This document shows, piece by piece, positions 23,494 through 27,300 of a DNA stretch of 32,000 nucleotides (its first letter is position 1; every line of letters starts with the position of its first letter). The notes beneath the pieces are model-generated. The model had not been told where the DNA came from, did not search any database, and worked only from the letters and a program-made list of their open reading frames with translations. Source of the DNA: Candidatus Helarchaeota ASGARD archaeon Hel_GB_B (lineage in GTDB: Archaea > Asgardarchaeota > Lokiarchaeia > Helarchaeales > HEL-GB-B); the NCBI GenBank assembly GCA_005191425.1, contig SUPR01000003.1, positions 36,986 through 68,985 of the forward strand. The letters are read 5' to 3'. Made by a program: the position numbers and the translations under genes.

Positions 23494-23791
23494 CTTTTAC
23501 ATACCAATGATGTTTTAATCGTAATTTATATATTTCAAATTCCAAATTTGTTAATTCATTTTGTAGGGCTTTTATTTCAATATTAAATTTCTCTTGGGAT
23601 ATTTCTCCAATTTGCTTTTGGACGACCAAATTCTTTAATTCTAATTGTTTTAATTTTATTGATTTTTTAATCTCTTCAAATTTATCTCTATTTTCTGAGA
23701 TTATTTGTTTCCATTTATTACTAGATTTGTTTGTCTTATCTAATTGGTCGATAATTTCCATTAATTTTTTTCTTTTTTCTTCATCAATCAC
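23486..23791 (-). CDS. Hypothetical coiled-coil protein inside the hdr operon
   Basis: 101-codon ORF with GTG start, heptad-rich sequence and a GEISQEKF motif. Its stop overlaps the next ATG. Confidence 0.65.
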   Translation of the reverse strand: MIDEEKRKKLMEIIDQLDKTNKSSNKWKQIISENRDKFEEIKKSIKLKQLELKNLVVQKQIGEISQEKFNIEIKALQNELTNLEFEIYKLRLKHHWYVKDE

Positions 23792-23826
23792 TTTTCAAAC
23801 AACTTTATATTATTTCTACACACTAT

Positions 23827-23895
23827 AATCGATCCCTGTGCAAGGGTGTCCTATTCAGAGCAGCTCTTTAAGTCTGAACAGTCATTCTATCGATT
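23827..23895 (-). promoter_or_regulatory. SECIS element, eukaryote/Lokiarchaeota type, overlapping the mvhD stop codon
   Basis: Minus strand reads AATCGAT-AGA-ATGA-CTGTTCAGA-CTTAAAGAGCTGC-TCTGAATAG-GA-CA-CCCTTGCACAGGG-ATCGATT. This gives an AUGA/GA kink-turn core, a 9-bp upper stem (one G-U), AAA 12 nt after AUGA, and a 7-bp basal helix. Confidence 0.85.
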
Positions 23896-24322
23896 TTTGC
23901 TTTTTTAATGGGTTAAGTCCCATTTTTTCCACATCTGCTGCGACTTTTTCAATGATATCTTTCAGTTTGTCAGCTTCGGCAGCTGATACAAAATGCATTT
24001 GTACCCGGTCTTCATTAATTCCAATGTCTTTCAATAATTCTCTAACAAATTTAACTCGTCTGGCGCATGCTAAATTCCCTACTTTATATTCGCAATCTCC
24101 GGGATGTCAACCAACGCTAATCACTGCATCTGCGCCATCTACTAGTCCCCGTAAGATGTGATTGACATCTACTCGACCTGTACATGGTAACCTAAGAATT
24201 CTTACTATCGGATTATATTGTAGCTTAAGAGTCCCTGCTAAATCTGCAGCAGAATAGGAACACCTCATACATGCAAACATTAATACGACAGGTTGTTGCT
24301 CTTTAATTTTACATCACTCCAT
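23882..24322 (-). CDS. mvhD: MvhD/VhuD [2Fe-2S] subunit, selenoprotein (UGA at 24107-24109); start at 24322 or 24307
   Basis: Manual translation: QQPVVLMFACMRCSYSAADLAGTLKLQYNPIVRILRLPCTGRVDVNHILRGLVDGADAVISVG*HPGDCEYKVGN...MHFVSAAEADKLK...KSIE*. The * aligns with Cys in SGCNLGECHY of the fused MvhD. Missed by the ORF track. Confidence 0.92.
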
Positions 24323-27300
24323 TTAATTATTTTCTTTTAAAATTGCATCTATTTGATTTAATATTTGGACATCTTTCCACCATCTTAAATCTCGAGCTCC
24401 AATTGGACAAGATGCTACACAGATCCCACATCCTTTACATTTCATTTCATCTGTTGTTGAAATCATTTTAAAAGGGCTAATATCTTTAATTGATATTGCA
24501 TCATATGGACATACAACTTCACATAGACCACATCCAACGCATTTTTCTATATCAACATCAGCTCTGATCATCTCAATTTCGATTCCTTTATGTTTAATTG
24601 CTGAAATACTTGCTGCCCCACGGGCAAGTGCAATGGTATCTGAAATATCTTTTGGAAAGGTAGACGCAGTATAAATTCCTGGAACTTTTGTCTCAACAGG
24701 TTTAAATTTTAAGTGAAGTTCTTCGATAAACCCATCTTCCGATCTAGTGATACCAAGTATTTTGCATAAATTTTCTATATCATCTGGTGCTTCTTGTCCA
24801 ACAGCTAAAATCACATAATCTATTTTTAATTCTAATTCTTTTTTTAATAATGTATCAAATATTTTTACTATAATCTTATCAGAATCTATTGCTTTGCTAA
24901 CTTTTGGTGGAAAATTCGGTTCCCACCTTATATAATTGACTCCCATTAATTGAGATGTGATATAATTTTCTTCCATATATCTACCAAATGCCCTAATAGA
25001 TTCTTTATAAAGTACATAAATCTCAGATTTTGATAATTCTTCCTTTAATATTATTGAATTAATAATTGAAAAATTACAACAAACTCTTGAGCAATATTCA
25101 TTACCTGGTTCGTTTTTTGTAGCTCTAGAACCAACGCATTGAATAAATACAAAACTATCATTTTCAGAAAAAAAATTATTTTTCAATTTTTCCTGAAATT
25201 CAAGAGAGGTCATGACATTTTTTATCAGACCATATCCATAATATCCTTTGGGCGGAGTCCATTCTTTTGTCCCAACCATGACTAAAATTGTGCCAACTTT
25301 AACCTTTAATATACGATTTTCTTTTTTTAACTTTATACTAACTTCAAAATTTCCTATAAATCCATTCAGATCTACAATTTCGGTTGATGTAAATATCTTA
25401 ATATTATTAAAATTATTAATTTGTTCCAATAATTTAAGTAATAAATTACGAGCTAACTCCTTTTTAGGAAATGTCTTATATAATTTATTTAACCTTCCTC
25501 CAATAATTTCCTCTTTTTCTATAATGATTACATTAAATCGTTTCTTTGCAAGGTCTAAAGCTGCGGACAAACCAGCCACTCCTCCTCCTATAATTAAAAT
25601 TGTAGGTATCAGGCTGATATTTTTCAGTGGAACTTTATCTAAATATCTTGCCCGCGCAATTTCTCCTCTTACCATTTCAATTGCTTTTTTAGTGGCAATT
25701 TCGGGATAATCATGATGGACCATTGAAATATGTTCTCTAATGTTAATTGGCCCCGTAAAATAAAATCTAGACAGACCAACATCCTCCACGCATTCTCTAA
25801 ATGTAGTTTCGTGGGTCAACGGTGAACATGAAGCGACAACAACTCTATTTAAATTGTATTTTTTAATGCTATCCTTAATTAATTGTTGACCTGGATTGGA
25901 ACACATGAATAAATAGTCTGTAGTAAATACAACATTTGGTAAATTACTAACTGCGTCAGCTACTTTTTTTGAATTAACTACATCCGAAATTACTCCTCCA
26001 CAATGGCACACAAAAACACCAATTCTAATTTGATCTTCATCCACATCATAAACTTTTTTCTTTTTTATTTTTATTTCAGGTAATTTCAATAAAGAGGTCA
26101 CCGCTGAAGCAGCTGCTTTTGCTTCAGCTATACAATCTGCACCATCACGCGGACCATGAGCAATTCCAATTACAAAAATTCCTGGTATATTTGTTAAGAT
26201 ACTCTCTAAATTTACATCCTTTTCTTTGATAAATCCATCAATTGGATCGATTTCGATTCCCAATCTATTAATTAATTTAAGAGTACTTTCTGGCAAGACA
26301 AATGCGCAATTTAGTACAACTAATTCAATATCATTAAGCTCAACTACATTATCTGTAAGTGTATCATTTAGTTTTAAGATCAAATTTTTTGTTATTGGGT
26401 CTTCTTGTATCTCAGAAACTCGTCCTCTAATAAATGTAATTTTATATTGTTCTTTTGCAATGTTATAATAATGCTCAAATAGTTTCCCTGCAACTCTTAT
26501 ATCTATATAACAAATATAAATTTCAGCGTCTGGTTCATGGAGCCTCATATTTCTTGCGTTTTTAATTGAAAACATACAACATACTTTATTACAATAATTA
26601 TGGTTAATTTGAGAATCTCTTGCTCCAACGCAATTGATCATTACAATTTTTTTAGGTCTCTTACCATCGCTAGGTCTAATAATTTTAGCAGATACTGGCC
26701 CAGTTGGGTGTGTTAACCGTTCAAATGTTAACGAAGTTATAACATTCTTGAATTTACCATATCCATATTCTTCTTTAACAGTTGGGTCGAATTCTTCTGC
26801 GCCAGTAGCTATTATTATCGCCCCTGCATAAAGTACAAAATCTTGGGGTTCCATATCATGGTCAATAGCATTAACTGGGCATGTTTGAACGCACATGTGA
26901 CAATTAATACAATAATTTTTATTTATTGTAGTAACTAATGGGATTTGTTGTGGGAAATCTAAATAAATTGCATGAGTTTTACAAAGTTTGAAATTATATT
27001 CTGAATCGATAAATACTGGGCAATTTTCAATACATTTTTGGCATCCTGTACATTTTTCTTCATCTACATATCGTGGATTTTTGTGAATAAAAACTTTAAA
27101 ATTTCCCACTGAGCCCTCTACTCCCAAGATTTCTGATAATGTCATAATATTTATTAGAGGATGATGATAAACAGAGTTCATTTTTGGAGTTAAAATACAT
27201 GCTGAACATTCATCGAAAGGAAATATCTTGTAAATTTTAGCGTAAATTCCTCCAATTGTTTGTTCTTTTTCTATAATATATGTAATATATCCAGCATTTG

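Follow-up and report, generated by a model that had tools for sequence, protein, structure and literature searches.

The window analysed here is a stretch of 32,000 nt from a Helarchaeales genome (a MAG of 3.5 Mb with 28% GC). Its minus strand bears a run of hdrA-like genes, in which a 1024-aa hdrA (27397-24323) precedes a mvhD/vhuD selenoprotein gene (24307-23882), followed by a co-oriented ORF for a coiled-coil-like protein of 101 aa (23791-23486). An ortholog of this ORF also directly follows mvhD at two loci of relatives with a Cys-type gene (L009 and L013). An in-frame TGA at 24109-24107 makes ORF callers split mvhD. When TGA is translated as selenocysteine (Sec, U), the similarity to MvhD proteins continues unbroken across the codon and up to the stop UGA at 23884-23882. 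The internal UGA occupies exactly the conserved Cys position of the motif G-C-H-x-G-D-C, which reads G-U-H-P-G-D-C in this gene (G-U-H-x-G-D-C in general form). Between 19983 and 30855 of the minus strand, three HdrA/MvhD arrangements follow each other: a fused protein of 1153 aa, the 1024-aa HdrA with the separate Sec-containing MvhD, and a 448-aa protein together with a fused one of 706 aa. Sec occurs only in the separate MvhD, and the hdrA directly upstream of it contains no UGA.

Translation of mvhD probably starts at an ATT codon (24307-24305). This assignment derives from a GGAGUGA/GAAGUGA-N7-ATT layout that is common to this genome and to its congener G001, and the GGAGUGA/GAAGUGA stretch suggests a Shine-Dalgarno-like site. 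The first plain in-frame ATG is found at 24280, and the conserved N-terminal strand QPVVLMFAC sits upstream of it; an ATG at 24322 (minus strand), still further upstream, is followed by an in-frame UGA (region 24322-24278).

The mvhD frame ends with ...AUA GAA UGA on the minus strand, and with the A that precedes the stop codon this gives an AUGA (23885-23882) that lies 221 nt downstream of the Sec codon and belongs to a structured element at 23895-23827. As the original prediction had stated, the stop codon of mvhD is thus the UGA of the AUGA core. At the base of the element, helix I joins AAUCGAU (23895-23889) to AUCGAUU (23833-23827) by 7 bp. The predicted basal helix is present, although it does not lie "partly" in coding sequence as had been thought: its whole 5' strand is coding (codons K-S-I) and belongs to the last mvhD codons. 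Helix I is followed by A-G-A-A-U-G-A (23888-23882), the putative bulged strand of a kink-turn, which leads into helix II. The latter consists of nine uninterrupted base pairs between CUGUUCAGA (23881-23873) and UCUGAAUAG (23859-23851), including one G-U and three G-C pairs and no mismatch. It is capped by the 13-nt apical loop CUUAAAGAGCUGC (23872-23860), in which AAA takes up loop positions 4-6, exactly 12 nt after AUGA. The 3' core GA (23850-23849) stands immediately 3' of helix II and opens the non-bulged strand G-A-C-A (23850-23847). A third helix comes next, the side hairpin CCCU-UGCAC-AGGG (23846-23834; CCCU 23846-23843, loop UGCAC 23842-23838, AGGG 23837-23834), and the 3' strand of helix I begins right after it.

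RNAfold returned this three-way junction as both the MFE and the centroid structure, so that the three-helix fold stands as it had originally been drawn. A segment of 75 nt folds with -19.0 kcal/mol, compared with -11.2 +/- 2.6 kcal/mol for 200 shuffles, none of which was as stable (z = -3.06); for an 86-nt slice, z is -2.4. The sequence of the core is what one would expect of a kink-turn: a closing pair G23887-C23848 (positions -1b and -1n), a 3-nt loop A-A-U and the tandem pairs G23883.A23849 and A23882.G23850, next to an A.A mismatch at position -2b/-2n. In its loops, this copy departs from the consensus of the family described below. The family norm is an A-rich apical loop of 11 nt with a terminal G, whereas the loop here has 13 nt, starts with CUU and ends with C, G being the penultimate base. 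In the side-hairpin loop, the R of the consensus is followed by C, the sole such case among 38 members.

We consider the element to be, very probably, a functional SECIS of the Lokiarchaeota/Asgard type in a Helarchaeales genome, enabling the UGA at 24109-24107 to be read as Sec. Seven elements from relatives and paralogs, but not the window element itself, went into a covariance model (R1). It was based on alignment A2, a subset with equal loop length that was later re-aligned to the model; A2 was preferred to the MAFFT alignment A1, in which the 15 elements collected by hand were not aligned in agreement with the structure. R1 ranks the window element first on both strands of the 32-kb window, with a full-length match of 19.5 bits (E = 0.001). 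A second model (R2), refined after re-alignment, assigns it 46.9 bits, the second-lowest score of the accepted set; since the training set of R2 includes the window element, only R1 is independent with respect to it. In the 3.5-Mb genome, R2 has six matches. The gene immediately preceding each of them contains UGA in frame where Cys is conserved, and the genes served are four vhuD/mvhD and two hdrA genes. Apart from the gene in the window these comprise three further vhuD and two hdrA genes with two UGAs each, every one of them followed by a three-arm element. A plain descriptor scan of the genome (AUGA, 9-bp stem, loop, GA/AA) had no value as a test, since most of its 161 matches were AT-rich noise.

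The two hdrA genes with two Sec codons bear their own SECIS elements, at C167:2154-2209 (region C167:94-2720) and C122:8609-8665 (region C122:6623-8665). On contig C167, the vhuD gene beside hdrA has a second SECIS (2666-2720), and the same pair is present on contig C45 of G001. This differs from the situation described for Lokiarchaeum, where a single SECIS is shared by HdrA-VhuD, whereas on C167 hdrA and vhuD are each equipped with one.

The distribution of the element among orthologs amounts to a clean natural experiment on its role. The UGA is kept at the same mvhD position in this genome and in G001, G002, G004 and G006, which belong to two families, and the frames are intact on either side. 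In all five cases, the space between mvhD and the conserved coiled-coil gene is occupied by a stem-loop of the AUGA or AUGC type, complete with basal helix and side hairpin. The mvhD orthologs of G003 and G005 (loci L009 and L013) encode Cys at the Sec position; they have a spacer of about 20 nt there, with no structure in its place. The same was seen for vhuD on a broader basis. Among 30 vhuD loci, an element was found at all nine of the Sec type (UGA), with 46.9-62.5 bits, and at none of the 21 Cys-type loci was there any match above 16 bits within +/-1.5 kb. The possibility raised beforehand that orthologs with Cys might keep the same hairpin is therefore not borne out. A protein search with MvhD yielded four loci in genome contigs and two in metagenome contigs, with no further Sec-type ortholog among them.

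These data also bear on the idea of a generic intergenic RNA element without any role in Sec insertion, such as a transcript-end or processing hairpin, or a kink-turn bound by L7Ae that regulates the 101-aa gene. L7Ae-family proteins bind kink-turns in many archaeal RNAs, and the next start codon follows only 35 nt downstream. From this short distance we conclude, in line with the original prediction, that the element lies within an operon, behind the Sec-containing mvhD. Such a general function is nevertheless extremely unlikely. The Cys-type orthologs keep the same downstream gene and are devoid of the element, as are 21 out of 21 Cys-type vhuD loci, and the six genomic copies all follow UGA-containing genes, regardless of the gene downstream. 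A terminator reading of the hairpin can be rejected as well, since no terminator-like site was found in 23500-24400.

One might also regard mvhD as a pseudogene, its TGA as a nonsense mutation and the hairpin as the relic of a decaying SECIS. In favour of this view, no other element of the accepted set deviates as much as this one does through its 13-nt loop, the UGCAC of its side loop and the A.A at position -2, and only one Sec position remains for it to serve, instead of the two seen in the paralogs. Decay appears very unlikely all the same, as the UGA coincides exactly with the conserved Cys of G-C-H-x-G-D-C and is retained in five orthologs of two families with intact frames on both sides. 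Furthermore, helix II has undergone compensatory substitutions between this genome and its congener G001 (CUGUUCAGA/UCUGAAUAG versus AUAUUCAGA/UCUGAAUAU), a pattern that selection for pairing would produce. The order comprises seven genomes, so that covariation at the level of orthologs rests on five sequences; the statistics given below were drawn from paralogous family members.

A functional SECIS calls for a Sec machinery, which is present in the genome. On contig C9, the gene for SepSecS (481.7 bits) is immediately preceded by one for aSelB, in which the Pfam aSelB_III domain is recognised; the same contig carries a gene for a PSTK-like protein, whose score is below the curated cut-off. 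The genome further encodes a SelD with in-frame UGA (Sec-SelD). Neither RF01852 nor ARAGORN found a tRNA-Sec in this genome, in which only about 15 tRNAs were detectable at all. A candidate tRNA-Sec gene at C9:14937-15123 (plus strand) was found only via blastn-short with the tRNA-Sec sequences of relatives. Its acceptor stem (GGCGUUCUG/CAGAACGCC) is a perfect helix of 9 bp, the T stem has 4 bp, and the anticodon is UCA. Compared with the tRNA-Sec of G004, the D arm, the anticodon loop and the T loop are enlarged by insertions of about 46, 24 and 27 nt, which would make this a gene with three introns. A missing tRNA-Sec call can thus be an artefact of multiple introns in this genome. The order has six further genomes, five of which gave a tRNA-Sec score above the cut-off; the congener G001 is likewise without a detectable tRNA-Sec, and a multi-intron tRNA-Sec may be typical of the genus. 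No gene for an L7Ae-like or other candidate SECIS-binding protein was seen beside the aSelB-SepSecS cluster on C9. The absence of tRNA-Sec, SelB and SepSecS, named beforehand as a possible objection to a SECIS, is thus not observed. Taken together, the top rank with R1, the tie to Sec-type genes and the Sec machinery agree with the original assignment of the element to the eukaryote-like SECIS of the Lokiarchaeota kind.

According to our proposal, the folded SECIS would recruit aSelB with Sec-tRNA(Sec), either directly or via an adaptor, to ribosomes that pause at the Sec codon (24109-24107), 221 nt further upstream; its UGA would then be read as selenocysteine. The UGA of the core itself would terminate mvhD translation, as it is presumably too near to be served by the SECIS, which would be melted on arrival of the ribosome; the predicted C-terminus of the protein follows from this. 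Both recruitment of aSelB and termination at the core are modelled on the established eukaryotic and archaeal Sec systems.

The overlap of stop codon and core deserves a closer look, as it had originally been put forward as something special. The stop inside the kink-turn would then be a selected design by which termination is ensured and the SECIS is unfolded by every ribosome that terminates, with a feedback on Sec insertion. The overlap is real in the sequence. By the time a ribosome halts at 23884-23882, helix I must already be melted, and helix II would be covered by the ribosome. In addition, UGA codons near the lokiSECIS are argued to be non-recodable in the text of Mariotti 2016 (PMC4989117). 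The arrangement is not conserved, however. The same-genus ortholog in G001 ends at a UAA 15 nt upstream of the core UGA. Owing to a single CAA/TAA difference, the MvhD encoded here runs five codons further (Q-K-S-I-E), to the next in-frame stop. Orthologs of family f2 stop 13-16 nt upstream of the core. Among 27 relatives of the element with a reliable upstream ORF, the core UGA serves as stop in six, roughly the share that reading frame alone would give, and a UAG located 5 nt upstream (consensus UAGAAUGA) in seven; the other stops are spread from -32 to +13. All three stop codons are used in this set, and one stop lies inside the apical loop: at L070:1501-1555 (minus strand), the upstream ORF (191 open codons) passes through AUGA and the 5' strand of helix II up to a UAA located 13 nt beyond the core UGA. 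Counted relative to the core, the three frames occur 9, 11 and 5 times, and the overlapping one about as often as chance predicts (one third), which argues against selection favouring the overlap. Unfolding by ribosomes would not be specific to it either. As the elements are all located within about 30 nt of a stop codon, almost no member of the family can escape the melting of at least helix I by ribosomes that terminate. We therefore think it unlikely that the overlap was selected for the sake of termination or feedback. In the text of Mariotti 2016 (PMC4989117), an AUGA doubling as stop codon is reported for VhuU.1, and in that of Huang 2024 (PMC11227280) such overlaps are called frequent. 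The one in mvhD is thus not new; known from the literature as a type, it looks incidental.

As far as its core is concerned, the element conforms well to the lokiSECIS. The text of Mariotti 2016 (PMC4989117) describes the latter as AUGA, a 9-bp stem, an A-rich loop of 11 nt ending in G, and GA, found just after HdrA-VhuD; the Asgard type I eSECIS-like structure of Huang, Xiao & Zhang 2024 (PMC11227280) is another name for it. Shared features are the AUGA directly 5' of a 9-bp stem, an apical loop containing A residues and the GA directly 3' of the stem, as well as the location at the very 3' end of vhuD/mvhD, partly over coding sequence and with AUGA providing the stop codon. Unlike the lokiSECIS, the window element has a loop of 13 rather than 11 nt that is neither A-first nor G-last, and it serves one UGA, in mvhD only, the upstream hdrA being without Sec. 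Its loop differs from the strict form given by Mariotti (11 nt, A-rich start, G end) but falls within the range of 8-20 nt in the model of Huang, which, as set out in the text of that paper (PMC11227280), also allows a main stem of 7-15 bp with at most two mismatches. The main-text descriptions of the lokiSECIS comprise a stem-loop, an internal loop and a lower stem, with a third hairpin going unmentioned there.

With eukaryotic SECIS elements, the window element has in common the AUGA...AA...GA core, an expected kink-turn, the action at a distance from the 3' side and the rule that a UGA located too near is read as stop. Differences are the three-way junction in the position of an internal loop and the residence within a polycistronic prokaryotic mRNA. 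Unlike eukaryotic SECIS elements (SECIS_1 and related families), it is not matched by any SECIS model of Rfam. A search of the 32-kb window at gathering score, eukaryotic SECIS models included, gave no match to a SECIS family, and at E <= 10 the 301-nt slice 23700-24000 returned noise only and again no SECIS family. SBP2 is stated to be undetected in Asgard archaea in the texts of Mariotti 2016 (PMC4989117) and Sun 2021. The VhuD SECIS of Methanococcales and Methanopyrus, as described in the text of Mariotti 2016 (PMC4989117), resembles our element in lying 3' of vhuD, in having AUGA and GAC flank the main stem and in possessing an extra short stem; opposite AUGA, these VhuD SECIS elements have GAC or AAC. 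In contrast to euryarchaeal SECIS elements, helix II shows neither the asymmetric GAA/A bulge nor a GC-only upper stem, and the original distinction from the Methanococcales SECIS can be upheld.

The side hairpin had originally been viewed as an additional feature. Its presence and the resulting three-way junction were correctly recognised, but the whole family has it as a conserved arm that covaries, and it is no peculiarity of the window element. With R2, which has the side hairpin in the model, matches over the full length number about 600, and they come from 136 of the 151 genomes of the class Lokiarchaeia. The model covers all four families with Sec-type vhuD, including 127 of 127 genomes of the largest one, and matches five of five sampled genomes of one other Asgard family. 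In three families of the class, few genomes are matched (f5, 2 of 13; f6, 0 of 3; f7, 0 of 1). Two genomes of f5 (G017 and G018) nevertheless exceed the cut-off for tRNA-Sec; either these families have a differing SECIS, or the model is too narrow.

In an alignment of 38 distinct elements, 94.5% of the cells are paired, compared with 66.5% for shuffled and 32-59% for slid controls, and the score of the whole structure is 0.826 versus 0.28 (shuffled) and 0.06-0.15 (slid), although this alignment was fitted to the model and thus leans towards the structure. Independent MFE folds and the many different stem sequences point in the same direction as the covariation; ten of eleven paralogous or orthologous elements folded independently into the same topology with RNAfold. 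Changes on both sides were observed at nine of nine pairs of helix II and at four of four pairs of the side hairpin, which is paired in 96.7% of cases. Together with the substitutions relative to G001, this amounts to the compensatory conservation for which a check had been suggested. A basal helix of at least 5 bp is found in 34 of the 38 members (89%), as opposed to 30% of mismatched flank pairs. Loops are conserved as well. The apical loop has 11 nt in 29 of 38 members and a nearly universal G as last base, and the loop of the side hairpin ends with G-C-R-A: G and C are present in 38 of 38 members, R is A in 31 and G in seven, and the final A occurs in 36 of 38.

For the core, the family consensus is uAGAAUGA on the bulged strand and, on the non-bulged strand, GAC in most and AAC or GAU in a few members. 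The closing pair of the kink-turn (-1b/-1n) is G-C in 34 and G-U in three of 37 members, and the pair next to it forms in 75% of members, with compensatory changes. There is no support for a third pair underneath the kink-turn, as alignment columns 1-65 are paired in 18 of 38. We infer from these sequences that the family core would adopt a standard kink-turn placed on a three-way junction of basal helix and third hairpin. A third hairpin is mentioned in none of the main texts of Mariotti 2016, Sun 2021, Huang 2024 and a 2026 review, and the same main texts contain no mention of a G-C closing pair of the kink-turn. A full-text literature search for SECIS combined with "three-way junction" retrieved nothing relevant.

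Such an architecture resembles the k-junction, in which a third helix branches off the non-bulged strand of a kink-turn, next to the tandem G.A pairs, so that a three-way junction arises (Wang, Daldrop, Huang & Lilley 2014, PMC4005666). In the SECIS, too, the third hairpin departs from the non-bulged strand, 2 nt after GA. In the TPP riboswitch k-junction, the third helix is located directly opposite the loop, whereas in the SECIS, as judged from its sequence, one or two Watson-Crick pairs (G-C, often followed by A-U) lie between the loop and the branch point.

Variant cores were found behind several genes that still have an in-frame UGA: AUGC_AA in the two f2 orthologs of mvhD, AGGA_GA, UUGA_GA and AAAA_AA (loci L010:1889-1946, L012:1417-1474, L047:83-137, L048:72-126, L050:101-155 and L051:186-258). 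All of them retain helix II, the third hairpin with a GCAA loop and the basal helix. The vhuD element of the relative L051 goes furthest, with AAAA_AA instead of AUGA_GA and hence no G.A pairs, while its three arms and the loop are kept. This suggests that the junction may matter perhaps as much as the kink-turn.

We tentatively propose that the SECIS of the Lokiarchaeia is a kink-turn on a three-way junction and that the archaeal SECIS reader, be it aSelB, a protein of the L7Ae family or the ribosome, requires its G-C-R-A arm for recognition or docking. In our view the odds for this proposal are close to even, if slightly against it. If true, a G-C-R-A docking arm would explain how Sec is decoded without SBP2, and it would change what the eukaryotic SECIS inherited or lost. 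The locus studied here adds one more lokiSECIS behind one more vhuD/mvhD; more interesting is the third arm, as a feature of the whole family. It concerns the very element that made the Lokiarchaeota "the transition between archaeal and eukaryotic Sec systems". The three-arm model is a better search tool for selenoprotein genes of Asgard archaea, and a third covarying arm with an invariant loop gives the search for the missing SECIS-binding factor of archaea something concrete to aim at.
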